NCBI GenBank assembly: GCA_963793865.1
Contig: CAWCBP010000008.1
Span: forward strand, 320,001-384,000
Source: an uncultured delta proteobacterium
Lineage (GTDB): Bacteria > Desulfobacterota > WTBG01
Length of the DNA: 64,000 bases
Direction: 5' to 3'
Notes under the pieces: model-generated
Told to the model about the DNA's origin: nothing
The model's input: the letters and a program-made list of their open reading frames with translations, nothing else
Database searches by the model: none
Position numbers and translations under genes: made by a program
Shown here: positions 8,818-62,717 of the stretch, piece by piece
Layout: the number at the start of each line of letters is the position of its first letter
How positions within the stretch are numbered: the first letter of the stretch is position 1

Positions 8818-10407
8818 ATGAAAAAAACACTCCTCCTGATTATTGCCTTCATTGGCCTCCTGGCCCTCTACAAGGCACAGCACGTGAAGCCGGTGGAAGA
8901 TCCCCGGGAATCTCCCATCTTCCAGCAGCGGCTGCAAAGCTCTCTGGATAAATTCCAGGAGAGCGATTATCCTTCCAGGTCCGAGCGAAAGCGGCGCGGC
9001 GATGCCGAAGCCGGGTCCCGGGCATCATCCGGCACGGAACAGCAGGTGAAAGACCTGGTCGCATCGGGCATGTGCGGTCAGGTTACCCTGACCTGGGTGG
9101 AGGAGAAAAAGATTCCCAAAGAGAAGGTTATCATCAAGCGCAGGGAACCGGATGAGGACTATGAACCGCTTGAGGGAACAGGCATCTTCGAGCGGGAGGA
9201 GGAAGGGGGAGTCAGGTACTGGTTTTCAGAAAGCGGACTGCGTGACGGCGTGAAATACGATTACCTGGTTTCGGTGAAGGATGAAGGGGTAAAAGCGCGG
9301 GTCAAAGGTCCTGTTTCCATTACGCTGGCCTGCACCGACCGGGACAGGGAGCTGCTGGCCAAGCGGGACAGGATGCTGAAGGAGTATGCCCAGAAGACGC
9401 CCCGGGAGCGGGATGGTGATCAGGCGGGAAAAGCATTGCCCCCGGCGAAGGCAGCAGGCGGGGATGTAATCGCTTCCGGGAGATGCGGCAGACTGACCCT
9501 GACCTGGGCCGAAACGGGGATGATTGACAAGAGCGGCGTTCAGATAAAAAGAAAATCCGGCAACGGGGATTACACGCTGCTCAAGGAAAGAAAAATCTAT
9601 CATAGAGAAGAGGAAGCAGGCGGGATACGTTACTGGGCCGCGGACGACGGCCTTAATGACGGGGAGAGCTATCAGTATCTTGTTTCATTTAAAGATGGGG
9701 CGGGCAAAGAGGTGGTAAAAGGTCCTGTCTCAATCAGCCTGACCTGCACGGAGAAGGACAGGGAAATGATAGCCGGGCAGGAAAAGATGGTTAAAGAGTA
9801 CTACCGGAAGCAGGCCGGCAGGGACAATTCCGCGCCCGGCGCTCCGGCTGCGGCAGCAGGGGCGTCGCCCTATGAGTTGAGCAAAGAGGTATATACAGTC
9901 GAGGCGGGCAAATCACCCTGGAAAGGAGCACCGGATGCGCCCGTGACCCTGGTGGTGTTTTCTGATTTTGAATGCGTCCACTGCGGTACCCTGGCGGAAT
10001 CTCTGGAAACCATGCTTAAGATATTTCCCGATGACGTAAAAGTCGTCTTTAAAAATTATATTATACCCTACCACAAGAACTCTGAATATGCCGCCATGGC
10101 AGCCCTGGCCGCGGGTGAGCAGGGGAAGTTCTGGGAGATGCACGATCTGCTCTTTAAAAACCAGTCGGCATTGGGGAAGGAGGCTATTACAGGCTTTGCC
10201 GCATCATTGAAACTGGATCTTGAAGCGTTTGAAAAATCCCTGGCAAGCAAGGAACTTAAGGATAAAATTGAACAGGATGGAGCCCAGGGTAAAAACCTGA
10301 ACATTCAAAACCTGCCCACCACCTTTATTAACGGCAGAAGCTTCATGGGCTCACCTCCCGCCGAACGCATAAAAGGCTTCATCGAAGGGATGCTTCAGAA
10401 GAGGTGA
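8818..10407 (+). CDS. Membrane-anchored DsbA/thioredoxin-fold oxidoreductase with two N-terminal FN3-like repeats
   Basis: GAPDAPVTLVVFSDFECVHC (CxxC), AGEQGKFWEMHDLLF and a cis-Pro-like NLPTTFING. The unit ASGxCGxxTLTW...GPVSIxLxCT is duplicated. Confidence 0.85.
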   Translation: MKKTLLLIIAFIGLLALYKAQHVKPVEDPRESPIFQQRLQSSLDKFQESDYPSRSERKRRGDAEAGSRASSGTEQQVKDLVASGMCGQVTLTWVEEKKIPKEKVIIKRREPDEDYEPLEGTGIFEREEEGGVRYWFSESGLRDGVKYDYLVSVKDEGVKARVKGPVSITLACTDRDRELLAKRDRMLKEYAQKTPRERDGDQAGKALPPAKAAGGDVIASGRCGRLTLTWAETGMIDKSGVQIKRKSGNGDYTLLKERKIYHREEEAGGIRYWAADDGLNDGESYQYLVSFKDGAGKEVVKGPVSISLTCTEKDREMIAGQEKMVKEYYRKQAGRDNSAPGAPAAAAGASPYELSKEVYTVEAGKSPWKGAPDAPVTLVVFSDFECVHCGTLAESLETMLKIFPDDVKVVFKNYIIPYHKNSEYAAMAALAAGEQGKFWEMHDLLFKNQSALGKEAITGFAASLKLDLEAFEKSLASKELKDKIEQDGAQGKNLNIQNLPTTFINGRSFMGSPPAERIKGFIEGMLQKR

Positions 10408-10645: not shown

Positions 10646-10771
10646 ATTGAATATAAATTGTATAAAAAAGGGATTGCAACTTACATCAAATAAAACAATA
10701 TTCAATAGACTATTCCCCTAGAGATTTTACTAACCAGTAAAAACAACACGGGGAAATAATATGGATAATGT

Positions 10772-10815
10772 GTCCTCCATATACCAATAATGGTGTGGGG
10801 GACTTTTTTGTTTTT
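10772..10815 (+). terminator. Terminator-like hairpin in the 5' leader of the TxCP-repeat gene
   Basis: GTCCTCCATATACCA-ataa-TGGTGTGGGGGAC followed by TTTTTTGTTTTT, ~30 nt before the ATG. Confidence 0.55.
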
Positions 10816-10842
10816 GGTGAAGAACATTTTGATCAAGGGGGG

Positions 10843-12678
10843 ATGAGCATGAGAAGAATATATGGAATTGTAGCCACAGTACTGTTCGTGAGTGGGGCGC
10901 TGTTGAGTCAGGCCTTTGGGCAGCCATTTGATTTTGGTGACGCGCCGGAAGGCGCGCCTGCCTATCCTTCTTCGGGTGGGATGGGAATGTTTCCTACCTG
11001 CACAATGATTGGACCTGCTGGATGGATCCAGCACACCAATTTCGGTGGCTGGTTCGGACCGGCAGTCGATTTCGAACCTGATGGAAATGCCGGCTTTTGT
11101 CCACCCTCCGGCTTTCCCCCTTATGATCAGGACGAATGCTTTGCCGATGGTGATGCCGGGCTTATCATACCACCCGCATACACCATTGTCGGCGGAGTTG
11201 AGGTTCTTTGCCCTACAGCAACAGCCGGTTCCCTGGGAACAATCTGTCAGGCGGCTATCTGGGGTGGGAATGTTGATATCATTGTGCACAACTGGATGCC
11301 TAATCATCCTCCATATGTTTCTGCGTATGTCAATGTGCTCATGGACTGGGATCAGAATGGTGTGTGGGGCGGTGCTTCGACCTGTCCCCTGGGAAGCGCT
11401 CCGGAGCACATACTGGTTAACTTTGTGGTGCCACCCCAATTCGATGGACCACTCTCGGCTCTCGGGCCGCCGGGCTTCCTCATCGGCCCCAACCCGGGTT
11501 TTGTCTGGACACGATTCACTATCAGTGAAAAAGCTGTGGGTCTGCCCTGGACCGGTGAAGGAATGTTTGAGGATGGAGAATCTGAGGATTACTTACTGCG
11601 CATTGACCCGGCAGCGCAACCTACCATGCTACCTGTCATAACCGAGTGTCCTGTGGTTGCAACCGAATGTCCGGTTGGAGAAACCACCTGCCCGGTGGAA
11701 CAAACCTCTTGTCCTGTTGAACAAACGCACTGTCCGGTGGAACAGACCTTATGCCCGGTGATCAATACCCAATGTCCTGCACAACCGGAACCGACCATAT
11801 GTCCGGAAGCGGCAACCCAGTGTCCTGTGGTAGAGACTGAATGCCCGACACAGGAGACTATATGTCCCCTGGTGCCGACCCATTGTCCTGAGGAGCTGAC
11901 GCTTTGTCCCAAGGATCCGCCGTTCTGTCCCCCCGAGGAATTCACGATTTGGCCGGCAATACCGACCCAGTGTCCTGTGATATTGACAGCGTGTCCCATC
12001 GGTCCGACCTTTTGTCCTGATCCTCCTACTGCGTGTCCAATTACGCCAACCTGGTGTCCTCCGGTGGAGACGCAATGTCCCGTGGAGCCGGTTTTCACGG
12101 TATGTCCGCTCAACGCCACCCAGTGTCCTGTTGAACCGACAAAATGTCCGCCCCAGTACACCAACTGTCCGGAAATTCCCACCGTGTGTCCTATTGGCGC
12201 CGGGGCTACGACATGTCCGGAGATTCCTACCCAATGTCCCGTGGTTCCGACGGTGTGCGCGGCCCAGGTGCCCACGGTCTGTCCGGTGGACCCGACCTAC
12301 TGTCCGCTCAGTGACGCTGACGCTGACGGCGTTCCGGATTGCAGCGACAACTGTCCCACTAAATATAACCCGGGACAGCAAGACAGCTATCCACCGGGCG
12401 GGAACGGGTGCGGTGATGCCTGTGAGTGCGAAGGCAACTTCGATGATGACTATGATCAAGACGGGAGTGATGCGTCAACCTTCAAGGTGGATTTCGGCAG
12501 AAGCAAAATCAGCGGCTACCCTTGTACCAGCGCCCTTCCCTGCAATGGTGACTTTGAGTGCGATACCGATGTGGATGGAAGCAACGCATCAATGTTCAAG
12601 GTGGATTTCGGCAGAAGTAAAATCAGCGGCAACCCCTGTCCCATTTGCCCAACGAACCCGTGGTGCGTGTATCCCTAA
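10843..12678 (+). CDS. Secreted GEVED-like domain + ~31 TxCP heptad repeats + TSP3-like + dockerin-like tail
   Basis: Signal peptide, DFGDAP...WDQNG...RF...GESEDY (GEVED-like), repeat tract, then DADGVPDCSDNCP and CECEGNFD...FKVDFGR twice. Confidence 0.8.
   Translation: MSMRRIYGIVATVLFVSGALLSQAFGQPFDFGDAPEGAPAYPSSGGMGMFPTCTMIGPAGWIQHTNFGGWFGPAVDFEPDGNAGFCPPSGFPPYDQDECFADGDAGLIIPPAYTIVGGVEVLCPTATAGSLGTICQAAIWGGNVDIIVHNWMPNHPPYVSAYVNVLMDWDQNGVWGGASTCPLGSAPEHILVNFVVPPQFDGPLSALGPPGFLIGPNPGFVWTRFTISEKAVGLPWTGEGMFEDGESEDYLLRIDPAAQPTMLPVITECPVVATECPVGETTCPVEQTSCPVEQTHCPVEQTLCPVINTQCPAQPEPTICPEAATQCPVVETECPTQETICPLVPTHCPEELTLCPKDPPFCPPEEFTIWPAIPTQCPVILTACPIGPTFCPDPPTACPITPTWCPPVETQCPVEPVFTVCPLNATQCPVEPTKCPPQYTNCPEIPTVCPIGAGATTCPEIPTQCPVVPTVCAAQVPTVCPVDPTYCPLSDADADGVPDCSDNCPTKYNPGQQDSYPPGGNGCGDACECEGNFDDDYDQDGSDASTFKVDFGRSKISGYPCTSALPCNGDFECDTDVDGSNASMFKVDFGRSKISGNPCPICPTNPWCVYP
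11638..12306 (+). repeat. Coding tandem repeat xxxTxCP (21-nt period, degenerate)
   Basis: 29 CP dipeptides, 28 of them TxCP, plus TIWP and TVCA variants. Confidence 0.9.
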
Positions 12679-13131: not shown

Positions 13132-15176
13132 ATGAACATTACCGGTTCGCTTTTAAAATTCTGTTTAACCTTCACAATTGCATTTCTCATATCCTGTGCC
13201 GGTGCCTCCGCATTCGCGGGGAGCATGTGTGTTGAACTGACGGAGTCAAACAGGCTGCCTGACGGTCAAGAGTACGCCGCCGTTACCTTAAGCTACATTT
13301 ATAATGGCGACAAGAGAGGGGTGAGAATGACCGTAAAGGAGAACGAGGACATTCTTTTACCCCGAAAATATTTTGGCATCCGGAGGTTCGGTTTCAACAC
13401 CACCCTGGCTAATCCGGCAAAAAACCTGAAGATTAAAGTTCCCCGCGAATGGACCCGAAGGTTTAAGCGCTTCAGTTATGGCACATTCGGCCAGTTTGAA
13501 GTGAACGTCAGCAGGCGGGTTCCTTCCCTGGGGAAGATCTATAAACGGGTAACCCCGCTTATCATGGATATTTACTACCGCAGTGGAGATTTATCCTATA
13601 ACGATTTCATAGTGGAAAATAAAAAAGGGTACAATTTCGCCGCACTGATTGCAAACTATACGTACGATGACAAATACAACCCGGGTGCCTGTTTTGCCAC
13701 AGAAGAAAAGCCCTATGCCTGTGAAAAACCGTCCACCACAACGACCATCATTAAGCCTTATACAACCACAACAACCGGACCGGGAAGCACCACAACAGCC
13801 AAGCCTTCTTCAACCACGACATCCAAACCGGTCAGTACATCCACCGTAAAGCCATCCTCGACCACCACATCAAAACCGTTGAGCACCACCACTGTTAAAC
13901 CAACGACGACGAGCACGGTTCCGGCCACCACAACATCCGTCCTGACGACGACCAGCTCGCTTCCGACGAGCACGGTTCCGGTTACAACCTCCTCGATGCC
14001 GTCGACCACCAGTTCCCAGCCGGTGATCACTACCATCAGTGCCGATCAACAACCACTTCACAGCCCTCAACCACCAGCACGCAGTTGACCACCACCACCT
14101 CGGTGCCCTCTATCTGCACGGGGGAGATTTACGAGGGCGGCACCTGTGACCTGGGGCTGCCCATTGACGACCCGGCCTATAACCGCCCGGGCAGGAGGGG
14201 GCTCGCGCTTACCTGCGAGGACATTGTGGACTTCTGCGTCTGCACCGACTGCGTGAATCTTGATCCGGCATGCTTGGCCTGGGCGATAGATCCCGCGGAG
14301 CCGTATTTGAGCATCGTCGCCAACCCCAACGGGAGCGCGCGGCTGACGGTGGGAGAATCCTGCGACCAGCTTGAGGAGATCAGGGAGTACACGGTGACGG
14401 TGACCGATACTTGTAATGGCTGGTCGGACAGCGTGGTGCTTGAGCTGGGCAAGGTGACCATCGACGTTCAGGATGTCAGCGTGAAGAAGGGGAGTGGATC
14501 CTTTAAGGTGCCGGTGAGTCTTGTCAATCGTTACAACGCGGTTCGGGCGATGAGCGTTGATATCTGCGAATGTGACGGGGGTAGTGACGGAATAGTGTGC
14601 GACAGCTGCAGCATCGATCCCGCGCGCGCGCTTGAGTTCAACTGCTCGGCGCATGAAACAGCCGACGGCTGCTGCAGGGTGGTGCTGTATTCCACCAATC
14701 CCGCCGCCTTTATTTTGCGAGGGGCAGGGACAGTGTTAAACGTAGTCTATGAAGCCGAGGAGGCTTTTGAGGGCTGCAGCTGTCTGAGGCCGGTAAACAG
14801 GCAGGTCTCGGACCAGTTTAATGAGGAACTCTGTGCCTGCCAGTCACCGGGGGATGTTTGTTTCAAATCCTGCGGAGACATCTACCCCCAGGACTGTCTC
14901 GGTCCCGACTGCACACCCTGCGGAGATAACGTGGTTAATCTTTTGGATATACTGGAGGCAGTTGATATCGTTCTGGGCTATCAAACTCCGACTGCCTGCC
15001 AGCTTGATCACGGCGATGTGCCTAACGGCAAGCCGCCTTATTGCGGAAACCCCGCGGGTACCCTCAACTGTGCTTCGGACGGGGACATTGACGTGCTCGA
15101 TCTCCTGGTCATTATTGACATGGCGCAGGGCAGGGCCAACTGCTGCGATTTTTGTCTGTTTAAGAAGATTTTTTAG
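13132..15176 (+). CDS. Secreted protein: unknown basic N-domain + Thr/Ser/Pro-rich linker + Ig-like + cohesin-like (class B) + classical-type dockerin; one frameshift at ~14043
   Basis: Signal peptide MNITG...SAFA. The T-rich tract continues across the frame change into ORF 14085-15176. VPVSLVN...DICEC...FNCSAHE..DGCCRVVLYS, then GDNVVNLLDIL and DGDIDVLDLL. Confidence 0.7.
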
Positions 15177-15570: not shown

Positions 15571-15775
15571 TAAAAATGCCCGAGGCAGGCCTGCTACTAG
15601 GTTTTTGACCGGCAACTACTTATTTTGCATGATGATTTTTTTGAGTCGCTGACATAATTTAGCTTGACTAAATTTTTTATGAAATATAGTATTAATCGAT
15701 TTTTTTAAAATATACTTTTAAATCCGACAGGTCATTTTAAAACCGAAACATTAATTGAGAAAGAGGAGGGTGGTT

Positions 15776-17478
15776 ATGCTGAAGAAACTATCAATTTTAT
15801 GTGCAGTCATGTTTGCTTTTGGGCTGATGGCAGGCTCTGTTTATGCCCAGAGCTACTGCCAGGATGTTTTGGAGGCAGGGAATCCCGGCGGCATTACAAC
15901 CGGTCTTAAGACATGTGATACAGTTAATCCGGTAACGCTTAATCCAGGTGATACATTTTCCATTGACATCTGGGCAGCCGATATACCTGAGTCAATTATC
16001 TCCAGTGGATTTGAGATGCTTTACAATCCGGCCCAGGTAAGTCTCGTAAGCGTTCAGGCTTATGATGGTGTTGACATAGCCGGTCCTTGGGATGGAACAG
16101 CTACCCTTAAGATACCTGATGCTTATGGACCCGGTTCCTATGTACTGGCATTGGTACAGTTAGGTACCTGCCCGGTACCTGATGCCGGTGGTGACGTTAT
16201 CATAGCCAAGGTAACCTTCCAGTGCCTCGCAAATGGTAGCGGTGACATTTCTGTCAAAGGAATAACCGATTTTGATACAACGGTAGGGTGCACCAGCGGT
16301 ATAGTATACGATGCTACAATGGGCACCAATACACTTAATGTCACCATAGAAGCAGAAGGGTGTACTGTTGATGCAGAATGTGAAGACACACTATATTGCA
16401 ATGGCGCTGAAACATGCAATACCGTTACCGGACTCTGTGAGCCCGGCACGCCACCAAGCTGTGATGATGGGGTAGCTTGTACTACTGATGCATGCACTGA
16501 GGGTATAGACGAATACATCTGTACCCACACACCCATTAGATACAGTGTGTGACGATGGTCTCTACTGTAACGGAATCGAGACCTGTGATGTAGCGGCTGG
16601 TTGCCTGCCCGGCACACCGGTTTTCTGTCAGGATGATGGCCTTTTCTGCAACGGTGAAGAAATTTGCGATGATGTGCAGGACATTGTGTCATCCTGGAAA
16701 TCCCTGTTCTTCAGCCGGAGCCTGTGATGAGGAAACCAATACATGCATTTGCATATTATCAATAGATCCACCTTCAGCTAACGTGCAATTCCAGGGTACA
16801 ATTCAGTTCAATGCTGTTGCCAGCGAAGAGTGTGCTGCACCCAGCTATACGTGGGAAATTTCTGCAGGACGGTTGTACGGGAGAAACAACGGGAAGTGCT
16901 ATTGGCGGTGCCATCAATGCTAATGGTCTTTACACAGCAGGTGATACCGAAGGTACAGACCTTATCAGAGTAATCGATGTGAATAATGATAATATCTGTG
17001 CCACCGCTGAAGTGAATGTTTCCGCAAGCACAACCACAACAACCTCCGTCAGGCCGACGACAACAACCTCAACACCTACCACGACCACAACCGTTGAGCC
17101 GACGACCACGACTACCACAATCGGGCCGACGACCACGACCACCTCTATCCCCGGGGTAGTGCCAGCATCGACCTGAGGCCGGATTCAGTGTTCCAGTCGA
17201 GATGGTTCTTCTTGCCGCGGTTTTTAAGAATTGAGGGAACTAATACCAATTTTGTGCGCCGTCAAACAGCGGTGGCCTTCCAGCCAGCCAACGCAATATT
17301 GAAGTTTCGTCCTGTTGTGTTGGATAGTGATACTATCGTGATGTTGGTCATCATTATGCCAAGGTGGCTGACCGGGGAGGTTGACAGTGTTGAGGTGACG
17401 GCAATCACGGGGTCCGAATCGGCATCCGGTGAACTGGGTATTGAGTTACTCCCCTTCTTCCTGGAAGAAAAGCAGTGA
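15776..17478 (+). CDS. Secreted scaffoldin-like protein: cohesin-like (class A) + Cys-rich CDDGLYCNG repeats + Ig-like + Thr-rich linker + conserved C-terminal domain; ~4 frameshifts
   Basis: GGAGG RBS and signal peptide. The N-domain is clearly homologous to that of 223-2842 (GNPGG..GLKT, YDG...GPWD, DFDT). ORFs join at ~16537, ~16687, ~16862 and ~17155, with bridging peptide SASIDLRPDSVFQSRW. Confidence 0.72.
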
Positions 17479-17546: not shown

Positions 17547-17589
17547 ATAACCACGAAGATGTTAAAAAAAGCATCTTCGTGGTTATTTG
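17547..17589 (+). terminator. Hairpin, probable terminator
   Basis: ATAACCACGAAGATG...CATCTTCGTGGTTAT-TTG. Confidence 0.7.
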
Positions 17590-17685
17590 TTAGATATAAT
17601 TAAAGTACAAAGCGTTTAAATACGATATATAATTGAAAAAAAGCCGCTCTAAACCATTTTTAAACCTGTTTCAAGGAGGAGGTAC

Positions 17686-18804
17686 ATGAAAAGAAACAAA
17701 ACGCTGCTATGCCTGTTAATCATGACATTTTTTATGGGTAGCTTCCTGTTGGTCCCGTATCTGAATGCGGAGGAGCCCAAGATCAATGTTACCATAACCC
17801 CAAAGTCAGAAGCAAAAACACCGAAGGCAGAAACTCCTAAAGCTGTAAGCACAAAGGGCAAAACATCAGGAGAGAATCAGCCCGTCATATCTATCGATGC
17901 GAGGCTATATGACGCCGGAGAAGTATGGGAAGGGGATATGGTAACACACAGCTTTATTGTTAAAAATACGGGAAAAGGTGAGCTGAACATTGCCAATGTC
18001 AAGCCCGGGTGAGGCTGCACCGTAGCCGATTTTGACAAGGCTATCGCCCCCGGTCGGGAAGGCAAAATAACATTAAAGCTCAATACAAGCAGAAGGCAGG
18101 GCAAGCTCACAAAAACAGCTGTGGTCACCTCAAATGATCCGAACACGCCAAGTACCAGCGTAACGCTGGCCTGTTTCATAAAAGAACATATCAGCATTAA
18201 ACCCAACAACCGGTTTAACCTTACGGGGTATGAAGGCGACGAGTTGAGTCAAAAACTGACCATTACCGCGACAGAAGGCCAGGAGTTTGACATAAAGGAA
18301 GTAAAGACAGATCTGACGGATAAGATCAAATATAAGCTGGAAACTGTCCAAAAGGGGAAAGAATACACTCTGGAAGTTACGAGCCTTACCCGGAAAGAAA
18401 GTTTCGTTCGTGGGCAGATAGAGATCAGTACCACCAGCCAGAAGAAACCCCTCATAGTCCTACCGGTCTTTGTTAAGATCCAAAGCGAAGTCGAGGTGAA
18501 GCCAGCTTCCCTCTACTTCGGCAAAATCGATACAGCCGGCGGGCCGGTCAATCCTGAGATCCTTACCAAGTCCGTGGTGATTAAAATGGCCCGGGGGAAG
18601 GAGCTGGGCATCAAGAAGGTCAGTGGAAGCAGCAACTGGATTAAAACAGAGACGAAAACGGATGAAAAGGGCGTCCAGTATACTGTGGCTATTACTCTCA
18701 ACAAGGATAAAATGCCCAGGGGGAAATTTGACGAAAAAGTTGAAATAAAGACCAACAAGAAGGACGAGCCGTTAATAGTAAGCATTAAAGGTGAAGTCAT
18801 GTAG
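17686..18804 (+). CDS. DUF1573-like exported protein, probable selenoprotein (UGA at 18010-18012, motif KPG-U-GCT)
   Basis: ORFs 17686-18012 and 18121-18804 are in the same frame. Read-through gives VKPG*GCTVADFDKAIAPGREGKITLKLNT, matching the DUF1573 'CGCT...I.PG..G.I' pattern. Confidence 0.85.
18022..18044 (+). promoter_or_regulatory. Candidate bacterial SECIS hairpin
   Basis: GTAGCC-gattttgacaa-GGCTAT starts 9 nt after the UGA. It is 22/23 identical to the element after the UGA of the paralog. Confidence 0.6.
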
Positions 18805-18984
18805 GCTGGGAAGCAAAAACATATCAAAGATTTCTCGCTTCGCTTCGAAATGACAGAATAAAGAGCTCAGCATGACCCCGGTAGGAGCGGCATCAGCCGC
18901 GAATAATATTCACTGCTTGTCATTTCGAAGGAACGTGCGTGACTGAGAAATCTTTCATTTGCGAATTTTAAAAAAGGAGCATTA

Positions 18985-20154
18985 ATGATCAGCAGAAAAA
19001 CCAGAATGCCGTTAATGAGTTTGTTTGCAGCTTTGAGCCTTGCAACCCTGTTCCTTGCATCAACCGTGTGCGCGCAAGTGACGCTGACCGTTGGAAAGGG
19101 TTCCGCGCTGCCGGGGGCAACTGAAAGCGCTGTGCCGGTGAGCCTGGACAACCCCGGTAATAATATAGCCAGCGGGATGGAAATGACTATCTGTGATGCC
19201 AATAATTTTCTTGAATGTACCGGGTGTGAAACAACGGAGCGCACCACAGAATTTTCCTGTTTATTCAATGAATTAGGGGATGAACCGGATCCGCTAAAAG
19301 CCGGTTGCTGTAAGGTGGTACTCTTCAGCGTAAGCAGCGCAGACATTGAAACAGGTACCGGCCCCATATTCACTCTTTTGAATACCGTCAATAGCAGCGC
19401 GAGCGGTCAGACGTGCAAAGAATTGAGGATACTGGATGACGTGAAGATCGCAGATGCTTCCGGCCCGCAGATAATCCCGGAGCTGCAGCCAGGCGGGTTC
19501 TGCTTCCCCTGCAGCTCTGACGCAGATTGCGATGACGGGTTATATTGTACCGGTGAGGAAAGTTGTACAGGCGATGCCTGTGTGCCTGGTACGAATCCCT
19601 GCGCGGAAGGAACCGCTTGTGTCGAAGGCGCTGATGATTATGAGTGTGTTACGCCATCGACCACCACCACCGCAGGGCCATCGAGCACTACGACAACGGG
19701 GCCATCCACCACTACCACCACCACAGATTCAACGACCACTACCACCGGGCCATCCACCACAACCACGACGGTCTCCGGCGACGCGAGCATAGAGGTGATT
19801 TCGGATAATATTTGGAAATCCCGCTGGGTGGCGTTGCCGAAACTGCTGGTCATCGAAGGAAGCGGAACCAGCTTTCAGCCCTTTAAGACAACCGTTGCCT
19901 ATGATCCGCGGGATGCGGTGCTTAAACTGTTTCCCATAGTGCTGGGTGATAATTATATCTGGAACCTGATTCTGGTTATGCCCGGCTGGTTTGCGGGAAC
20001 AGGGGACCAGGAGGTGACGGTTACGGTCACCACGGGAGATGAAATCGTCAGCGATGATTTTCTGATACAGGAGCTTCCCTTTAAGCTTGATCGGAAGATA
20101 AAGCCCGTTAAAAGAAGGTTAATTCCCCCTCGAACCCCAGTCCGGGTCAGCTAG
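18985..20154 (+). CDS. Secreted protein: cohesin-like (class B) + Cys-rich repeat + Thr-rich linker + conserved C-terminal domain
   Basis: Signal peptide, VPVSLDN...TICD..N.LEC.GCE...FSC.FNEL...GCCKVVLFS, PSTTTT repeats and KSRWVALP...ELPF. Confidence 0.75.
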   Translation: MISRKTRMPLMSLFAALSLATLFLASTVCAQVTLTVGKGSALPGATESAVPVSLDNPGNNIASGMEMTICDANNFLECTGCETTERTTEFSCLFNELGDEPDPLKAGCCKVVLFSVSSADIETGTGPIFTLLNTVNSSASGQTCKELRILDDVKIADASGPQIIPELQPGGFCFPCSSDADCDDGLYCTGEESCTGDACVPGTNPCAEGTACVEGADDYECVTPSTTTTAGPSSTTTTGPSTTTTTTDSTTTTTGPSTTTTTVSGDASIEVISDNIWKSRWVALPKLLVIEGSGTSFQPFKTTVAYDPRDAVLKLFPIVLGDNYIWNLILVMPGWFAGTGDQEVTVTVTTGDEIVSDDFLIQELPFKLDRKIKPVKRRLIPPRTPVRVS

Positions 20155-20315: not shown

Positions 20316-22227
20316 ATGCGTTCAGGAGATGACCATACCAAGGCACAAGGCTCCCGGAAAGTGGTTGGCCGGGGGCAGGATTGCCTGCAAAAAAGCGGTT
20401 CCGCGGGGGGAAGGAAAACGGCGGGCGGCAGGTGGTTATGGCTTTTCCTGGTGATCCTTGCCGTTGTGATGCTCAGTTATTCCAACAGTTTAGAGAATCA
20501 GTACATCTTTGATGATTTTCATCTGATACTTTCGAACCCTCAGGTGACCAGCATCGAGAACACCGCACGCGACCTGCTCTCGGGGAAGCTCCCGGCATAC
20601 TATAGGCCGCTTAGAACCATTTCCTATGCTCTGGATTACACTCTCAATAAAAAGTTCTGGTACCGGTTTGCAAGCCATCAATGGACTGACAGGGGGCTTA
20701 TTCCCCTGGGATACCACGTCTCCAATATTTTCTATCATATCCTAACTGCATTGCTCGTATACCTGGTAATTTATAAGTTATCCTTGAATGCCAGGGTCGC
20801 TTTTATAGGCGCAAGCCTCTTTGCCCTCCATCCGGTACACACTGAAAGCGTAGCCTACCTTTCGGGGAGAAGGGATATCCTTTCTACTCTTTTTTACCTC
20901 GCTGGTTTTTATTGCTTCCTCTGTTACAGGCAGGGAAAGCAAATACGCTTCATAGTCGCCGCCTTTCTTATGTATATGCTGAGCTTGGGGAGTAAGGAGA
21001 TGGGGGTTACCCTTCCCGGTCTCTTTCTCGCATATGACCTGGTAAAAAATTTTAATCACAATGAGAGCAGCATGGGCCCCGGCTATTGGAAGGCTCTCTT
21101 TTCAAGCGCGAAGAAAAGTTTTCAGCAGTCTTATTTACTGTATCCGGTTGCTTTCCTGGGGGCTTTAGCCTGCAGCTGCTATGCAGTGTTCATTAAATCA
21201 GCTTCCCGTCAGGATGCGTATTACGGAGATAGCGCGTTTACCACTTTTCTCACAGTTGGAAGAATACTGGTGCATTATATAAAACTCCTTGTCTACCCCA
21301 TCAGGCTCAATGCCGATTACAGCTACAATGCTTTCCCTCTTTCGGTCTCCTTATATGAACCATCAACCTTCCTGTCTGTCCTACTGTTACTGCTGATGGG
21401 GTATCTGACCCTCAAGCTGCTGGTTAATCATAAAATGGCTGCTTTCGGGATTGCCTGGTTTTTTATAACCTTGCTGCCGGTATGTCACATCATTCCCCAC
21501 CATGAGATGATGGCTGAGCACTATCTTTATTTGCCTTCGGTTGGTCTCTGCCTGGTCGCGGCACTGGCCGGTAAGCGCTCCCTGGCGACGGGGAGGTCAC
21601 AACCTTGTTGCTCACAGGCTGTTTTCTCGCCGTAGTTGTGCTCTTTTCATTCCGGATATGGGATAGAAACAGGGATTGGAGCGACAGCCTTACCCTTTAT
21701 GAAAAGACGGTTAAAACAGCGCCTCAGTGCGCCCGCGCGCACAATAATCTCGGCAATGCACTAACTCGTGCGGGAAGAATTGAGGAAGCTGTTTCTGCCT
21801 TTAAACAGGCGCTCGCTATTAAGCCGGATTTTGCAGATGCCCGCAATAATCTCGGGATTGTCTATGCCAGAAGCGGTGATGTGGACGCAGCCATCACCGA
21901 ATATAAGAGAGTGCTGGCCCTTACCCCTAAACATACCAAGGCGATAGCATATAACAATCTTGCCTGGATTTATGCTACATCCATAAACGAGGCACAACGT
22001 GACGGCCGGAGGCAGTTGCATTAGCAATCAAAGCATGTGAGCTAACAGGATTTAAAAATGCCAGCTTTCTGGATACACTGGCCGCTGCGTGTGCTGAGGC
22101 GGGTTATTTCAAGAGTGCCGTGTTCTATCAGAAAAAGGCTCTGGCCATGAGTCAGGAAAAAGAACAAGCAGCTCTCCATGTCCGTCTGCGCCAGTATGAG
22201 TCCGGCCAGGCTTACCGATCCTACTAG
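20316..22227 (+). CDS. TMTC-like GT-C membrane glycosyltransferase with C-terminal TPRs; frameshifts at ~21590 and ~22010
   Basis: YIFDD, YYRP, FALHPVHTESVAYLSGR, SKE and AEHYLYLP, then TPRs. The final frame reads AVALAIKACELT...LDTLAAA to TAG at 22225-22227. Confidence 0.78.
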
Positions 22228-22268: not shown

Positions 22269-24569
22269 ATGGCTGGAACCTATTCATTGAGGCGAGCATG
22301 GGAAAAGCGAGCGTCAGAAAAAAAAGCAGGAAGACGTCCAGGGGAGCCAGCAGTTGATAACGGGTCAGCCTCTGAAGCCGGCTGCCTGCAAGCTCCGGCA
22401 CAAGAGGCCGAGTGCAAAAGGAAGTGGTACCTGCTCCTGGCTGGCGTGCTGCTTTTAACCGCTGCCTGCTATGGTAATTCCCTGAACAATACCTTTGTGT
22501 TTGATGATGCCCTGGTGATTGCTGAAAATCCCGGGATACGCGGCATTGAAAATATTCCCCGGCTGCTGGGATTCACAACCGGCCGCACTTCCTACCGGCC
22601 CATCAGGATGGTCTCCTACGCACTGGATTATACGCTTAACAAGAACCTCTGGTGCCAGATCGGGAATTGCCGGGAATCGGATCCCGGGCTCTATCCCCCG
22701 GGATACCATATTGGCAATATTGCCTACCATCTGCTGACGGCATTGCTGGTTTTTCTGGTCGTTTCGCGCCTGGCCGGAAATTTCCGGGTTGCGCTGCTGG
22801 CAGCGGGCATATTTGCCCTCCACCCGGTGCACACCGACAGCGTGACCTATCTCGCGGGCAGGAGGGACATCCTGTTCACCCTGTTTTATCTGGCCGGGTT
22901 TTATTTTTTTCTTCGCTACCGGCAGGAAAAGCGGCTGTCCCTGATGATTTTCGCCTTTATCATGTATATGCTCAGCATGGGGAGCAAGGAAATGGGGGTT
23001 ACTCTCCCCGCGCTCTTTTTGTGCTATGACATGGTTGAAAATTTTTCCCCGCAGGGTATCGGCCCGGGAGGCCGTGCCCGGGAGCTTTTCAAGAGTTTTA
23101 AAAAGAGTGTGGCCCAATCCGCGTATCTCTATGTTCCCCTGTTCATCGGCGCTCTTGCTTTCATCTACTATAAAGTTTTCGTTGCGTCACCATCCTACCA
23201 GAAGGCCTATTACGGGGACAGCGTTTTCATCACCTTTCTCACCGTGGTTAAGATTCTGGCGCACTACATTCAATTGCTGATATATCCCGTCAATCTCATC
23301 GCGGATTATTCCTACAACGCCTTTCCGCTTGCAACTTCATTGTTTGAGCCCGCGGTCCTCTTCTCCCTTGTGCTTCTCGCGGGGGTGGTGTACGCGCTCC
23401 TCCGCTTGTTGGACGGCCACAAGCTGCCGGCATTCGGCGGCGCCTGGTTTTTCCTGACCCTGCTCCCGGTCTGCCATATTTTTCCCCACCACGAGCTGCT
23501 GGCTGAACACTATCTCTATCTGCCCTCGGTGGGTTTCTGCATTGCGGCGGCAGCGCTGTTCGACACCTTCATGAAGGAGAAAAAGTACCGCTTATATGCT
23601 TCAGCCGGTTGTGTCGCCGTCCTCATTATCTTTTCGCTGCGCGTGGTTGACAGAAACAGGGATTGGAAGGACAGCCTTACCCTTTATGAAAAAACCGTCA
23701 CAACCGTACCTGAATGCGCCCGCGCAAACTCCAATCTCTGCGAGGCCTATACCAATGAGGGAAGGCTGGATGAGGCCCTGGCGGCATGCAGGCAGGCGCT
23801 GGCCATCAAGCCGGACCAGATCGAGGCGAACCATAATCTCGGCACCGTGTATGCGCGCAAAGGAATGGCGGAAGAAGCGATTGCCAGCTACAAACAGGCC
23901 CTGGCTTTAAGGCCGCGCTACGCGAAGGCATATTTCAATATCGGTGTGCTGCTTTATCAAAAGGGTGATCTCGAGGGTGCAGTTGATGCGTATAAGCAGG
24001 CGCTTGCCATCAGTCCTTACTATGCTGAAGCGAGAAAAAATCTGGGCATGGCCTACAGCGCAATGGGAAGATTTCAGGAGGCAATTGAGCAGTACAGGTG
24101 GGCAATGGCCATCAAACCGAACTATACCGGCGCCCGGAACAGCCTGGCAGCCGCCTACCTGCAGCAGGGTGCGTTCGATAATGCCATAGCGGAAATGGAA
24201 TTGGCGGTGGCCGGCAACCCCGATGACGCGGACGCGTATTTCAGCCTGGGATATGCCTATTCACAAAAGGGGGATACTGCCAAAGCGGTTGACGCGTATA
24301 AGCGTGCGATTGCCAAGGGCCTGGTGAGGGCGGAAGTCCACAGCAATCTCGGCAATCTCTACCTTCAGGAGGGGAGGCTTGATGAGGCAATCAGTGAATA
24401 CCTGCAGGCGATTTCCATCCAGGATAATTTTGCCGGCGCCCATAATAACCTGGCCATGGCATATTTTAAAAAGCAAGAGTATGCCATGGCCATAAAACAC
24501 TGTGACAGGGCGGCGGAACTCGGTCTCAGCAATCCGGCCCTGCTGAAGGATCTCCTGCCCTATCGCTAG
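22269..24569 (+). CDS. TMTC-like GT-C membrane glycosyltransferase with multiple TPRs
   Basis: FVFDD, SYRP, FALHPVHTDSVTYLAGR and AEHYLYLPS, then a TPR array. Close paralog of the upstream gene. The start is uncertain. Confidence 0.85.
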   Translation: MAGTYSLRRAWEKRASEKKAGRRPGEPAVDNGSASEAGCLQAPAQEAECKRKWYLLLAGVLLLTAACYGNSLNNTFVFDDALVIAENPGIRGIENIPRLLGFTTGRTSYRPIRMVSYALDYTLNKNLWCQIGNCRESDPGLYPPGYHIGNIAYHLLTALLVFLVVSRLAGNFRVALLAAGIFALHPVHTDSVTYLAGRRDILFTLFYLAGFYFFLRYRQEKRLSLMIFAFIMYMLSMGSKEMGVTLPALFLCYDMVENFSPQGIGPGGRARELFKSFKKSVAQSAYLYVPLFIGALAFIYYKVFVASPSYQKAYYGDSVFITFLTVVKILAHYIQLLIYPVNLIADYSYNAFPLATSLFEPAVLFSLVLLAGVVYALLRLLDGHKLPAFGGAWFFLTLLPVCHIFPHHELLAEHYLYLPSVGFCIAAAALFDTFMKEKKYRLYASAGCVAVLIIFSLRVVDRNRDWKDSLTLYEKTVTTVPECARANSNLCEAYTNEGRLDEALAACRQALAIKPDQIEANHNLGTVYARKGMAEEAIASYKQALALRPRYAKAYFNIGVLLYQKGDLEGAVDAYKQALAISPYYAEARKNLGMAYSAMGRFQEAIEQYRWAMAIKPNYTGARNSLAAAYLQQGAFDNAIAEMELAVAGNPDDADAYFSLGYAYSQKGDTAKAVDAYKRAIAKGLVRAEVHSNLGNLYLQEGRLDEAISEYLQAISIQDNFAGAHNNLAMAYFKKQEYAMAIKHCDRAAELGLSNPALLKDLLPYR

Positions 24570-24740: not shown

Positions 24741-25757
24741 TTAGAGTACTTTGCCCTCGACGATAATAGTTGCCGCGACGGTCTTGCCCTGGCACTGCGT
24801 CTGAACGGTTACCGTTTCCCTGAATTTCTCTTTGGGTAATTTGTCCTTATTCAGCGAGATGGTGATGGTGTACTGTTTTCCCGCCTGATCGGCTTTTACC
24901 TCTGCCGTAATCCACTCCTTGCTTGTCTCGATCTTGTTAATACTCAGATCTTCCGACTGCAGATGGCTGATGACGGTGGTTCTCTTGAGGCTCGATGCGT
25001 CGAAGTTTTCCTTGCCGGTATCGATAACGCCGAAATAAAGATATTCGGGGGTGACCTTTATCTCTTTTTTCAGGTTTCCCAGGACCGATATCGAAACCTC
25101 GGGCTTCTTCTTTGATTCCGTCTTGAGCGCGATTCTTCCCCGGAAGGTATCTTTAATGCCGCCCCGCGTCTTAATCCCAAGGGTGTATTCCTTGTCCTTC
25201 TTCTCATTTTTCAGGGTGTATTCTATTTTATCGTCGATGTTTGAAGAAACCCCGGTTATGTTGAGAGGCTCATCAGTATTGGTGGTAATGCGCAGAACCT
25301 GTTCCAAACTGTCCCCGTAAAATCCGCTGAACATCACCCGGGGGGCCGGCTCTACGCTGATGAAGGGTTTTATCGTACCCCCGATGGAAACCGTGACCTT
25401 GGGCTGTTCGGGATCGTTTGAAAAAATAATCGCGCTCTGTCTTGTCGCTCCCATTTTGCCGGGTGTGCTGATTCTCAGGGTTACTTTGCCCTCCTGACCA
25501 GGAGGAATAGCCTTATCAAAATCGGCTACCGTGCACCCTCACCCCGGTTTGACATTGGTAATGTCGAGCTGGGCCGTGCCGGTATTCCTGATGGTGAAGG
25601 TGTGAATGATATCCTCACCCTCCCATAGCTCTCCGGCGTCATAGTCAGGGGCATCGATGGTGAGCCGGGGCTGGTCTCCTCCCTGCGCGAAGAGGCAGTG
25701 AACAGTAGAAAAGGTAAAGAGCAGGCAAAGCATGGTCAGAAACAGGTTTTTTTTCAT
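24741..25757 (-). CDS. DUF1573-like exported protein, probable selenoprotein (UGA at 25541-25539, motif KPG-U-GCT)
   Basis: ORFs 25539-25805 and 24741-25454 are in frame. Read-through gives NVKPG*GCTVADFDKAIPPGQEGKVTLRIST. Full-length paralog of 17686-18804. Confidence 0.85.
25507..25529 (-). promoter_or_regulatory. Candidate bacterial SECIS hairpin
   Basis: Minus strand GTAGCC-gattttgataa-GGCTAT, 9 nt after the UGA. Confidence 0.6.
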
Positions 25758-25933
25758 AAACAACATACGATTCTCCGGACTGGTTACAGGTGCGTGTTGC
25801 TTCACTGCTCATGCTTCCCGCAGATACACTTGCTTTCTCTCTCATTTTATATGTTTGCCGGGTGAATCAAGATGCTTGCGTATCCTGAACACATGAGAGG
25901 AAACAAGGCGGGTATAAATCAGAAAGGTCGTAT

Positions 25934-29816: not shown

Positions 29817-32248
29817 GCTATACCTCCTTTAACTATTGTTCTGTTGCAATAATCAATGCGTAAAAATATGCAATTATTCAGCGCATGTGATCAATGAAAT
29901 CCGTCGGCAAAGTAGTCCAGCAGTTCAATCACCTCCGGATTTTTAGGATCAAGCGCAACTGCTTTATTAAGGCTCAGCAGGGCATTGCGCGTAGAACCTA
30001 TTTTTATGAATGCCCTTGCCAGCAGAATATGCGTATCAAGGTCGTCCGGATTGACAGTCAGATGAGCCGTCAGATAGCGCATGGCTACTTCGGTTTTTCC
30101 CTGATCCGAATAATGGGCTACCTTTTCCATGATACCCTGTTTGATGGTTGGCAACGCTGCCGTCTCGTCTTGATTGAGGGAAATGGATTTTTTAAATTCT
30201 CCAATTGCCTCCTTCAGGGATTCCTTTTTAAGGTAGGCAAGGCCCAGCTTGAGGTGCGCATCAGCATCATCAGATTTGTTCTTAAGGTATACATTGAAAT
30301 TCTCTATAGCCGCATCATAATTGCCCTTATCCAGAGCTTCTACCCCAAGCTGGTAGTTTTGAGATACAGTGCCCGCACATCCTGCAAGGAAAATGCAGAG
30401 CACAATAGTTACACAATGTATGGTTTTTCTCATTCGAATTTTGATCATTCGTATTCGCTGTGTGCCTCGGGTTTATGGTCGGTAGGAGCGGCTTTGAGCC
30501 GCGAATGCCTCACGCATGAACGCGCTCCTGCCGGGATTGCTATACAAGGCCACGATTTTATTTATACTCATATCAACTTTTAGCTAACCTCCCTTATTAC
30601 GGATAAGGGTCGCCGAAGCAGTATATTTTCCCATTGGTGGAGGAGTAGTAGACATGTCCGTCCGCCAGGGCGGGAGAAGGAACAGAATACCAGGCCACCA
30701 CGTAGGGATCATGGCCCCTCACTATGAACTCGTTGGCCTGGGTGCTGCAGTTGTCATCCTTGCAGAACTGGTACTCCCATACCGGGACCAGGGTGTCCGG
30801 ATCCGAGACATAATCGTAGCAGAAGAGTTTCTCTCTCCCGTAGGTGTTTGAATCTATCCAGGCACGGTCATAGTCGGTGGCGGCCACATAGAGCAGGCCG
30901 TCCTGGGGAGAAATGGATATGCCGCTCGGCCCGGGCAGCCAGTAACCAGAAACCGGGTGCGGATCGAACACATTCCAGGTGGGCACTCCCAGAAATGCCT
31001 CTTTAATGATCCGGCCCGTATCCTTGTTGAGCACAAACATGCTCCCGGTGTCGGCTATGCCGATCACATACCCCCGGGATTCATCAACCGCAGGCGCTGA
31101 ACAGAGGGCGGTATGACCCTTTACATTGAAGCCGGCCCAATGGGTCCACTTCACCTGGCCGTCATCGATGTCCAGTGCCCAGAGGGCGCCGTCACCGCCG
31201 GGAGCAAAGAGGGTGTCACCTGAGATTGCCTGGGTTCCTCCCTGGGCAAGCGGAATAGTTCCATGATGCCAGAGCTCAGCCCCGGTGTCTGCATCTACCG
31301 TGGCAAACTGCCCGTAGTGGTAATCGGTGGCGGTGTCCGCCTCGATGAAAACCTTGCCGTTCTGTACCGGCGGTATGTTGGTTACCCCGCATCCCCGCGG
31401 GTTCCAGGTCCACAGGACATCACCATTATCTTCATCCAATCCGTAAAAGTACCCGTCACGACCGGCCCAGTAATGGGTAGCGTCATTGCCGATGGTGGGC
31501 CAGGGATATCCCGGCTGCCCTTCAGTCACATAGGCCCAGGGCCGGAATATGGCATAAAAGCTGGGAAGGAATGACCCGATGTAGAGCTTGCCGTTGGAAA
31601 TGGAGGGCGGAGAAAGATGCCAGGCCCACTTCTGGTTATACCAGGGTTTCCCTACGTTCGGTCCCCCCGGGTCTTTGTAGGGTGTCCTCTCCCAGATGGT
31701 CGAGCCGTCATTCATGTTAAGCGAGATGACCCGCCCGTCAAAGGTCCCGAAAATGACGCAGCCGTTGGTGCCGTAATTGGGGTCCATGGTGGGCCCGGTG
31801 ATGAACTGGTCGTAACCGGCAGGAAAAGGAAGCGGGGCGATGAGAGAAAAATCAGTGCAGTCCGGCTGGGTGGTGGTGCACTCAAAACACCAGGAAGGAC
31901 AAGTGCCGGTGGTATAGCACACCCCGGTGTTTCCCTCCAGCATGGGAATGTCATTGTAACACCAGTCGGTGGGGGCTCCGGCCGGTTCGGTGGGCGCCTG
32001 CCAGAGAAAGTGTTGGTGCCAGAGCAGGCCGCCGGTAAACTGATCGTTGGCTTGGATTACCCCGGAACCCGCCGTGATTATCATTCCCCGGTCCACCACC
32101 GAGGGACCCCTGGAATCGGCGCGAGTTGTGGGAGCCCAGGCGCGAAATTCGCGGTCTTGCATCCACAGCTTGGCTGCGGTGGCTGGATAGCCGCTGTCCG
32201 TTGCCGCGCCGCTGTTCAATAAATCATGCCTGAAGCTCGGCCAGGGAT
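28093..32248. repeat. Direct duplication of ~1.63 kb (28093-29719 and 30622-32248, offset 2529)
   Basis: Identical incidental ORFs at 29088-29693 and 31617-32222. The remainder differs mainly by scattered substitutions. Confidence 0.9.
29891..30448 (-). CDS. TPR-repeat lipoprotein
   Basis: Lipobox LAGC followed by TPR motifs. Confidence 0.8.
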   Translation of the reverse strand: MIKIRMRKTIHCVTIVLCIFLAGCAGTVSQNYQLGVEALDKGNYDAAIENFNVYLKNKSDDADAHLKLGLAYLKKESLKEAIGEFKKSISLNQDETAALPTIKQGIMEKVAHYSDQGKTEVAMRYLTAHLTVNPDDLDTHILLARAFIKIGSTRNALLSLNKAVALDPKNPEVIELLDYFADGFH

Positions 32249-42993: not shown

Positions 42994-43241
42994 ATGAAAA
43001 AAAGCTTTTAGAGTGTCCTGCAGTGCCGGAGATGGCGTCACGGTAAACTTCAGACGCTTCTCAATTGTATCGCAGTCTGTTCTTGTGAATCAATGGATTT
43101 TTTTAAAACATCGCCGGGGCGCAACTTCCTGCAAAGGCTTGTCTGTCATGCGTTTTTATGCTACAATCTACAGCCATTGTTGAATCTGAAACAGCGTGTT
43201 GAAAAAGTGCTCAGGAGAACAGGTTTGATCGAAGCCAACAT

Positions 43242-61355: not shown

Positions 61356-61787
61356 ATGGGAAAGAAGGATTTTTATCAAAAGCTGCGCATACGGTTGAAA
61401 GAGTGGGCAGCAGGAGCGGGTAAAGACAGTACGGCACTCAAGTATGTGCTGCTCGCGCCTGACTTTTTTCATTTGCTCTGCAAAATTCTTCTTGATCCGC
61501 GGGTTCCCGGCAAGGAGAAGGCCAAGGTGGGAGGCGCCATTGCCTACTTTATGTCACCCCTTGACGTGGTGCCTGAGGGGCTGCTCGGCCCTGCCGGTTA
61601 TGTTGACGATGTCGCTCTTGCCGCATATGTCCTCAACAGCGTATTGGAAAGCGCCGGTCCCGAAGTGCTCCGGGAGCATTGGGCGGGCGACGGAGATGTG
61701 CTTGAGCAGATCAGGAGTGTCATCAAGGCGGCTGACAAGCTGCTCGGGTCAGGCGCCTGGAGTAAGATAAAACGCTTGATCAAGTGA
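61356..61787 (+). CDS. DUF1232/YkvA family protein
   Basis: AYFMSPLDVVPE...GYVDD. Confidence 0.85.
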   Translation: MGKKDFYQKLRIRLKEWAAGAGKDSTALKYVLLAPDFFHLLCKILLDPRVPGKEKAKVGGAIAYFMSPLDVVPEGLLGPAGYVDDVALAAYVLNSVLESAGPEVLREHWAGDGDVLEQIRSVIKAADKLLGSGAWSKIKRLIK

Positions 61788-61793
61788 GAACGG

Positions 61794-62717
61794 GTGAGCA
61801 TGCGCGGGTTCACATCTTTATTGATACTTTCAGCTGTTTTTCTCCTTCCCCTTTCCTGCGTTCATTTCAGGGAACCCGTTCATCTCGATGTCTATCGGGG
61901 GGAGCCAATTCCCTTTGAGGAAATGATCGGTTCCCTGGCGCAGGCCCGGCTGATTTACATCGGCGAGATACATACCCTGGAGCGGCACCACCGCTTTCAG
62001 CTGCTGGTCATACAGGCGCTGAGCCAAAGGAACATCCCGCTGGCCGTCGGCCTGGAGATGCTTCCCTTCACCGTGCAATCCCACCTTGACGCCTGGACTG
62101 AAGGCCGTTTGGGCGAGAAGGAATTCCTACAGCTCATCGACTGGAAAACCAACTGGGGCACCGACTTTGGCCTTTACCGGCCCATCTTTGAGTATGCCCG
62201 GAGGAATAAAATTCCCCTCAGGGCGCTCAACGCGCCGCGCGACGCGGTAAAGGAAGTGGCGCGAAAGGGACTTTCGGGTTTGAGCGAAGAGACGCGCCGG
62301 ATGCTTCCGCCCGTAACCGTCTCTTCGGAGGAGCATCGCCGCCTTCTGGCCCTGTTTATCGGCAGGCATAAAACCCTGCGCGCAGATATGCAGGATGCCG
62401 CCTATGAAGCCCAGGATGTGTGGGATTCCACCATGGCTCACGGCGTGGTGCAGTACCTGAACAGTAAAGAAGGAGCGGGGAAAACCATGGTTGTGCTTGC
62501 CGGAACGGGACACCTGGCATACGGCTTCGGAATACCGGAACGTGTGGCGCGATCATGCAATCTTCCCTGCCGGATCATCATTCCCTCCGACAGCGGTGAC
62601 CTTGAATATGAAAAGGAATGGGAGCGCTATGTTGAACCGGCTGACCTGACCCATGAAGATTTTCTTTTCCTTGACCGGCCCATAGCAAATTTCATTTTTT
62701 TAGTGCCCCTGCGTTAA
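61794..62717 (+). CDS. ChaN-like (DUF399) lipoprotein
   Basis: Lipobox PLSC, YIGEIH, VGLEM, AQ..WD.TMA and GTGH..YG.GIP. Confidence 0.8.
   Translation: MSMRGFTSLLILSAVFLLPLSCVHFREPVHLDVYRGEPIPFEEMIGSLAQARLIYIGEIHTLERHHRFQLLVIQALSQRNIPLAVGLEMLPFTVQSHLDAWTEGRLGEKEFLQLIDWKTNWGTDFGLYRPIFEYARRNKIPLRALNAPRDAVKEVARKGLSGLSEETRRMLPPVTVSSEEHRRLLALFIGRHKTLRADMQDAAYEAQDVWDSTMAHGVVQYLNSKEGAGKTMVVLAGTGHLAYGFGIPERVARSCNLPCRIIIPSDSGDLEYEKEWERYVEPADLTHEDFLFLDRPIANFIFLVPLR

Follow-up and report, generated by a model that had tools for sequence, protein, structure and literature searches.

The window analysed here is a stretch of 64,000 nucleotides (positions 320001-384000 of contig C8) from the genome of an uncultured delta proteobacterium, which comprises 3.85 Mb in 14 contigs. 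On its forward strand, at 17686..18804, lies a coding sequence that translation table 11 divides into two open reading frames (ORFs), 17686-18012 (108 aa) and 18121-18804 (227 aa). A preliminary description, made from the letters of the DNA, had proposed that two ORFs of the same frame are parted there only by a TGA at 18010-18012, within the motif KPG-U-GCT, and the sequence around the stop (aag ccc ggg TGA ggc tgc acc) and its translation agreed with this. Reading the TGA through gave a single frame of 372 residues with one non-standard codon, terminated by TAG at 18802-18804. With the UGA taken as selenocysteine (Sec, U), residue U109 stands in the sequence K-P-G-U-G-C-T, and the codon of its partner Cys111 occupies 18016-18018. 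A Shine-Dalgarno-like element, AAGGAGGAGG, was read from the sequence at 17673..17682 (+), 3 nt 5' of the ATG. Judged from the sequence and its relatives, the locus is most probably (probability about 0.92) one gene for an exported selenoprotein of the OS_HP2/DUF1573 family, in which the UGA is read as Sec.

The family assignment came from two profile hidden Markov models (HMMs). Pfam DUF1573 (PF07610) matched residues 69-156, across the TGA (E 2.6e-29, 101.5 bits), and the NCBIfam model NF041425, 'OS_HP2 family (seleno)protein', matched residues 73-165 of the read-through protein, scored with C put for U, at 115.1 bits against a cut-off of 100. A check for selA, selB, selC and selD, which had been recommended earlier, found the full Sec-decoding set in the genome, all above the curated cut-offs, with selA at 577.2 bits, selB at 370.4 bits, selD at 302.7 bits and the tRNA-Sec at 77.4 bits on contig C1. 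Other genes of this genome also carry a UGA in frame: two fdhA-type genes with the motif CARL-U-HSS (C6:197212-199227 and C10:24987-26408), a DsbA-like gene with YQ-U-PYC (C4:116629-117030), and selD itself, whose single in-frame TGA lies in KSAG-U-AAK (C8:451149-451973). In the window TGA is the ordinary stop of 4 of the 20 long ORFs, and the genetic code is therefore not reassigned. ARAGORN found no tRNA in the window.

Among 41 genomes of the class searched in all six frames, 34 gave a match. Exactly one in-frame TGA was present in 44 of the 58 match rows, two in 1 and none in 13. From 27 genomes 33 copies were compared, namely the two copies of the window, two further copies of the same genome and 29 fetched loci; in one and the same column, 30 had U-G-C (TGA) and 3 had C-G-C (TGY; L023, L036 and L037). 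The pairing of Cys and UGA among homologues, for which a tBLASTn comparison had been recommended, was thus found in a single column. The statement that DUF1573 proteins carry CGC at this place was correct for these three copies, and the OS_HP2 entry for the GOS data, 'pfam07610, UxC', counts 2 Sec and 354 Cys sequences (PMC2398784, 2008). The frame 3' of the UGA was conserved to the C-terminus, over about 260 codons, in all 28 full-length UGA-bearing genes aligned. Together with the family HMM and the Sec machinery, this column upholds the earlier proposal that the UGA encodes Sec in a U-x-C motif, and in this class OS_HP2 is nearly always in the Sec form.

A second copy of the gene lies in the window at 24741..25766 on the reverse strand. 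It is intact, 39% identical to copy 1, and has a UGA at 25539-25541 with the same KPG-U-GCT motif and the same two hairpins downstream. The two further copies of the genome are degraded: at C2:37751-37960 (L020) a 139-aa ORF ends within domain 1, and at C6:5144-5415 (L021/L022) a frameshift immediately precedes the UGA. Both retain the U-G-C codons and the hairpin sequence.

As the preliminary description had anticipated, standard annotation splits the gene, and both halves are present in public collections as separate proteins. The 108-aa fragment forms a cluster of 22 near-identical proteins, 12 of the 15 listed being exactly 108 aa long, and the 227-aa fragment a cluster of 9; the members of either cluster that have names are called 'hypothetical protein'. 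For copy 2, the N-terminal fragment with the chosen start was not in the protein collection. For annotation this means that two 'hypothetical protein' fragments should become one selenoprotein, and copy 2 and the many relatives in the class call for the same merger. Contigs of three other metagenome studies and of one RNA library bridged 18010-18012. In that oligo-dT RNA library one contig covered 17834-18100 with 4 differences; carry-over of DNA is possible, and transcription is not claimed.

Two hairpins follow the UGA on the forward strand. Hairpin 1 (18022..18044) begins 9 nt past the UGA, as had been described before, and has a 6-bp stem and an 11-nt loop; it is conserved. Hairpin 2 (18046..18063) consists of GCC-CCC / GGG-AA-GGC with the apical loop GGUC, which starts 39 nt past the UGA. 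Most relatives have CCUCCU-GGUC-AGGAGG here, a perfect 6-bp hairpin, and the pairing is shifted in copy 1 of the window. With the U of the UGA counted as position 1, helix 13-18/30-35 was paired in 94.4% of the cells of an alignment of 15 close relatives that included both window copies, and pair 15:33 was A-U in 7 sequences and G-C in 5. Helix 37-42/47-52 with the GGUC loop was paired in 82.2% of the cells, and overall pairing reached 88.3% versus 30-58% in slid controls. Fifteen more distant relatives, which have one extra codon, gave 89.8% pairing for helix 17-23/28-34, with three pairs altered on both sides, and 100% for the almost invariant helix 38-43/49-54. Their overall pairing was 94.5%, versus 50-67% in slid controls.

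The codons of this region were also constrained. For conserved residues at +1 to +19, the codon entropy was 0.71 versus 1.30 for the rest in the distant set (p 0.0003), and 0.99 versus 1.32 in the close set (p 0.03). These values come from a one-sided Mann-Whitney test on related sequences, and the p values are accordingly rough. The strongest synonymous constraint was found under hairpin 2, where the codons ATT CCC CCG GGC GGG GAA are nearly fixed.

The consensus for the bacterial Sec insertion sequence (bSECIS) requires a loop of 3-9 nt with G in the first two loop positions, a distance of 16-37 nt from the UGA and a minimum free energy (MFE) of -7.5 kcal/mol or lower (legend of Fig. 2 in PMC13188914). 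Hairpin 1 has a loop of 11 nt beginning with G, a spacing of 15 nt and an MFE of -7.3 kcal/mol, while hairpin 2 has the 4-nt loop GGUC with G in place, a spacing of 39 nt and an MFE of -7.9 kcal/mol. For comparison, the loop of the fdhA element in this genome is GGUCU, 18 nt past the UGA, and that of the selD element is GGA, at 20 nt. The candidate element thus resembles the canonical bSECIS of the E. coli fdhF type in forming a coding-region stem-loop 3' of the UGA whose small apical loop begins with G, and the GGUC of hairpin 2 is the loop of the fdhA element of its own genome. GGUC is also the loop of E. coli fdhF. In contrast to the canonical type, GGUC starts 39-40 nt past the UGA, and a second conserved hairpin occupies the gap. 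Hairpin 2 is therefore proposed to be the SelB-binding helix, and hairpin 1 would then bridge the extra distance. With its RNA signal beyond the standard bSECIS spacing, OS_HP2 would suit a study of non-canonical SECIS recognition. An Rfam scan of the whole window at gathering thresholds gave no match, which carries little weight.

Several results weigh against a decoded selenoprotein gene with these hairpins as its signal. When the genome was searched in six frames with NF041425, the locus scored 95.8 bits, just below the cut-off; such a search does not score the stop as Cys. The fold energy of the 69 nt was unremarkable (z -0.52), and 52 of 200 shuffled sequences folded as well. Hairpin 1 falls outside the bSECIS limits in loop, spacing and energy, and hairpin 2 in spacing. 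The Pro-Pro-Gly-x-x-Gly codons under hairpin 2 are complementary by nature, and a small hairpin is also possible at this site in 2 of the 3 Cys homologues. That 18010-18012 shows no difference in other samples holds among the rows listed only. Finally, the redox role discussed below is drawn from the motif only, and the gene context offered no consistent partner.

The architecture of the protein was derived from HMMs, alignment and an AlphaFold2 model, which was built from a 31-sequence alignment and had a mean predicted local distance difference test score (pLDDT) of 88.3. Residues 1-28 (17686..17769, +) form a predicted signal peptide, MKRNK-LLCLLIMTFFMGSFLLVPYL-NA/EE, with basic KRNK, a hydrophobic core and L-N-A followed by E. 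In the model the N-terminus is a helix (residues 4-21), and the N-termini of the homologues are hydrophobic as well. The export signal claimed earlier is therefore likely, as far as the sequence can tell. Residues 29-65 (17770..17880, +) make up a low-complexity linker rich in Lys, Pro and Thr, which was predicted to be disordered (pLDDT < 50 for residues 24-60). Three immunoglobulin (Ig)-like domains follow on the same strand: domain 1, which is the DUF1573/OS_HP2 domain supported by HMMs, alignment and model (residues 66-166, 17881..18183), and two beta-sandwich domains taken from the AlphaFold2 model, domain 2 (residues 169-266, 18190..18483) and domain 3 (residues 269-371, 18490..18798). 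U109 and G110 were placed in the turn that joins strand 100-107 to strand 111-116. The invariant columns were N94, G96, L100, U109, G110, C111, I120, G126, N150 and D151, and H88, E125 and K143 were near-invariant.

Structural and sequence databases added little to this picture. A Foldseek search of the PDB returned generic tandem Ig-like proteins on top (ciliary central-apparatus proteins, adhesins, cadherins and titin), with TM scores of 0.31 or less, and no functional lead. The sequence search of the PDB gave nothing meaningful (best match E 0.8), and a search of the genome contig collection with the single protein found no relative. A thioredoxin-fold thiol-disulfide oxidoreductase was considered and rejected, given the all-beta Ig-like model, the lack of thioredoxin-family matches and the one-residue spacer of the motif.

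As a selenoprotein family, OS_HP2/DUF1573 has been published since 2007 and has a curated NCBI model; the earlier selenoprotein call was right and is not new. Table 2 of Zhang and Gladyshev (2007; PMC1976440) gives OS_HP2 as one of six new selenoprotein families from an Olavius symbiont metagenome, and the figure legend on SECIS elements in that paper covers five of the six, OS_HP2 being missing. The family tables of reviews from 2022 and 2026 carry 'DUF1573 ... UGC' (PMC9312934, PMC13188914). The gene of the window shares with the family the PF07610 domain, the U-x-C motif with Sec first and the sulfate-reducer-type hosts among the Deltaproteobacteria/Thermodesulfobacteriota, and does not differ from it in any essential point. 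The EPSP synthase of the window had its best matches in metagenome-assembled genomes of Thermodesulfobacteriota (82%, 72% and 71% identity). Three features go beyond the parts of the OS_HP2 publications cited here, namely the three Ig domains with a signal peptide, the RNA element with its two hairpins and the presence of several copies in one genome. Only the two-hairpin SECIS candidate outside the usual range and the exported three-Ig-domain architecture are mildly new.

Two related groups of proteins are useful for comparison. The Cys form of DUF1573 (C-G-C) in Bacteroidota, Planctomycetota and others has the same domain with the motif at the same position, but carries Cys for Sec and needs no SECIS; in the class sampled here it accounted for just 3 of the 33 copies. 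DUF1573 proteins occur in the vesicle proteome of Tannerella forsythia, that is, associated with the envelope, according to the protein listing in PMC10682907. Exported DsbA-like selenoproteins (U-x-x-C) are likewise extracytoplasmic and have Sec in place of the first Cys of a dithiol motif. They differ in having the thioredoxin fold and CxxC spacing, while OS_HP2 is an Ig-like beta-sandwich with a one-residue spacer and is for this reason not a thioredoxin-fold oxidoreductase. The N-terminal domain of DsbD carries a redox-active Cys pair on an Ig-like fold outside the cytoplasm. It serves as an analogy only, and its motif spacing is different.

Taken together, the ribosome would read the UGA at 18010-18012 as Sec by means of the genome's own SelA, SelB, SelD and tRNA-Sec, and recruitment would depend on the mRNA structure just 3' of the UGA, presumably the two conserved hairpins, the second of them capped by GGUC. 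The product would begin with a cleavable signal peptide, followed by a disordered linker and then by three Ig-like beta-sandwiches, with U109-G110-C111 in a beta-turn of the first. Its own sequence and the N-termini of its homologues point to export through the Sec translocon. Outside the cytoplasm, U109 and C111 may form a redox-active selenenylsulfide or a soft-metal site, to judge from the motif. In several relatives (for example L025, L034 and L041) the motif supplies the sole Sec and Cys residues outside the predicted signal peptide, and any redox chemistry would then involve either an Se-S bond within the molecule, spanning a single glycine, or a mixed bond to a substrate. OS_HP2 would also suit the study of redox or metal sites of a non-thioredoxin kind in the cell envelope.

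The soft-metal or metalloid site (for example for Cu, Hg, As or Cd in the envelope) is a serious alternative to the redox role, although it is the less likely use of U-G-C in what would still be a selenoprotein. The relatives just named, among others, have no resolving cysteine beyond the motif, and the invariant or near-invariant polar residues H88, E125, N150 and D151 could complete such a site. Several of the selenoprotein families that stand beside OS_HP2 in the published family lists are metal-related, such as MerP/MerT-like, YHS and CopZ-like proteins (PMC2398784, PMC9312934, PMC13188914). A metal-resistance gene context was nevertheless found in none of the 20 fetched loci whose neighbourhoods were compared. 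Most bacterial selenoproteins, moreover, are redox enzymes.

A narrower proposal within the redox role takes up the folding role suggested in the preliminary description. That the protein serves neighbouring Cys-rich secreted proteins of the cohesin/dockerin type as their dedicated redox chaperone is improbable on the evidence of these sequences. The genes around it do appear secreted and Cys-rich, with poly-Thr linkers (15 Cys in 265, 17 in 389, 31 in 363 and 48 in 636 residues), and to this extent the preliminary description was accurate for the two direct neighbours (15/265 and 17/389). Its assignment of cohesin domains to them did not hold. The ORF at 15755-16552 scored 18.2 bits with Pfam Cohesin (PF00963), below the gathering score of 24.1, and the gene at 18985-20154 gave no Cohesin match even at E <= 5. 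A protein of 529 aa whose C-terminal part is a DsbA/Thioredoxin_4 domain (E 1.3e-24) is encoded in the island as well (8818-10407, +), and two genes for secreted proteins of very high Cys content, 10768-12678 (48 Cys) and 14085-15176 (31 Cys), follow it directly. In addition, the two OS_HP2 copies flank the glycosyltransferase-like genes of the island: they are convergent across TMTC/PMT_2-like genes, a layout that recurred in a genome of the same genus (L151).

Relatives of the Cys-rich neighbours adjoined OS_HP2 in 5 of the 20 loci, from three genomes (G001, G003 and G037), which are both of the same-genus genomes fetched plus G037. TMTC/PMT_2-like genes recurred in two of these 5 loci (L133 and L151). 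A tblastn search of the remaining 15 loci gave no relative of any neighbour from the window, and the ORFs scanned at their flanks came from unrelated housekeeping genes and included TetR, IlvD, glycogen phosphorylase, ClpB and NAD synthase. A conserved gene partner was sought in these 15 loci of more distant relatives and none was found. A role as a folding helper is thus possible in this lineage and is not supported at the level of the family. Two minor regularities were seen in the distant loci. A TetR regulator recurred in 4 of the 15, and an ORF of about 183-224 aa without a family adjoined OS_HP2 in 5 of them (L137, L138, L142, L144 and L150); 3 of these 5 ORFs were scanned and had no Pfam match at E <= 1e-5.

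The most far-reaching version of the redox reading is that OS_HP2 proteins are a distinct group of extracytoplasmic selenoenzymes, with a strained U-G-C selenenylsulfide in a beta-turn of an Ig fold. In this lineage they would act on disulfide-rich surface proteins with Thr linkers, which are probably O-glycosylated. Their UGA would be decoded by a non-canonical bipartite SECIS, in which an inserted covarying hairpin brings the GGUC SelB-binding helix, 39-40 nt away, into the range of the ribosome. As a whole this proposal is speculative and rather doubtful.

Two further readings compete with the selenoprotein reading itself. The recurrence of the TGA column, the continuing frame and the agreement of other samples make both a pseudogene and a sequencing error very unlikely. 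If the TGA were a true stop, the locus would contain either a broken gene or a pair of separate ones, with a signal-peptide fragment of 108 aa and an ORF of 227 aa. Gene callers do annotate two ORFs, the C2 and C6 copies are really degraded and TGA ends 4 of the 20 other ORFs of the window, but the chance of a true stop is nonetheless very small, because the HMM matches run across the TGA within one domain, because its column holds TGA in 30 copies and Cys in the remaining 3 of the 33, and because the frame beyond it is conserved in 28 TGA-bearing genes. Moreover, the 227-aa ORF would have to begin with GTG inside a beta-sandwich and would lack a signal peptide. An error in place of a real TGC or TGT (Cys) is extremely improbable: Cys homologues (L023, L036, L037) exist and the genome is an assembly in 14 contigs, but the fragment ending at the TGA belongs to the above cluster of 22 from several sources, contigs of three other studies cover the site with no difference among the rows listed, and TGA was present in 44 of the 58 matches from the 41 genomes.

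Four other ORFs of the window with a single read-through TGA (41008-43149, 43158-45371, 61356-62717 and 29885-30583) were considered as selenoproteins and rejected as artefacts of upstream extension. Three membrane proteins with PMT_2 / TMTC-DUF1736 and TPR repeats are encoded at 20316-21635 and 22269-24569 (+) and at 41008-43149 (-). Their position beside secreted proteins whose poly-Thr linkers are long suggests an island of protein O-glycosylation.

The region directly upstream of copy 1, at 15755-17478 (+), resembles a paralogue of 18985-20154 that has come apart into three ORFs, namely 15755-16552, the poly-Thr ORF 16811-17176, and 17188-17478, which shares 43% identity with the C-terminal domain (E 1e-22). 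Either a frameshift in the gene or an assembly error in the Thr-repeat region may be the cause. This upstream unit is closed by a terminator-like hairpin read from the sequence at 17549..17591 (+), with a 13-bp stem (17549-17561 / 17572-17584), a 10-nt loop and a T-rich tail after it, and the OS_HP2 gene was therefore regarded as a separate unit. The hairpin was not listed by the automated terminator scan because the loop limit of that scan is 8 nt. The promoter and terminator scan showed no promoter-like site and just two terminator-like sites at chance level, both within the gene. Downstream of copy 1, the intergenic region 18805-18984 contains short dispersed repeat modules of about 25-40 nt, which match 38 other places in the genome, and over this same region the depth of metagenome contigs climbs more than 100-fold.

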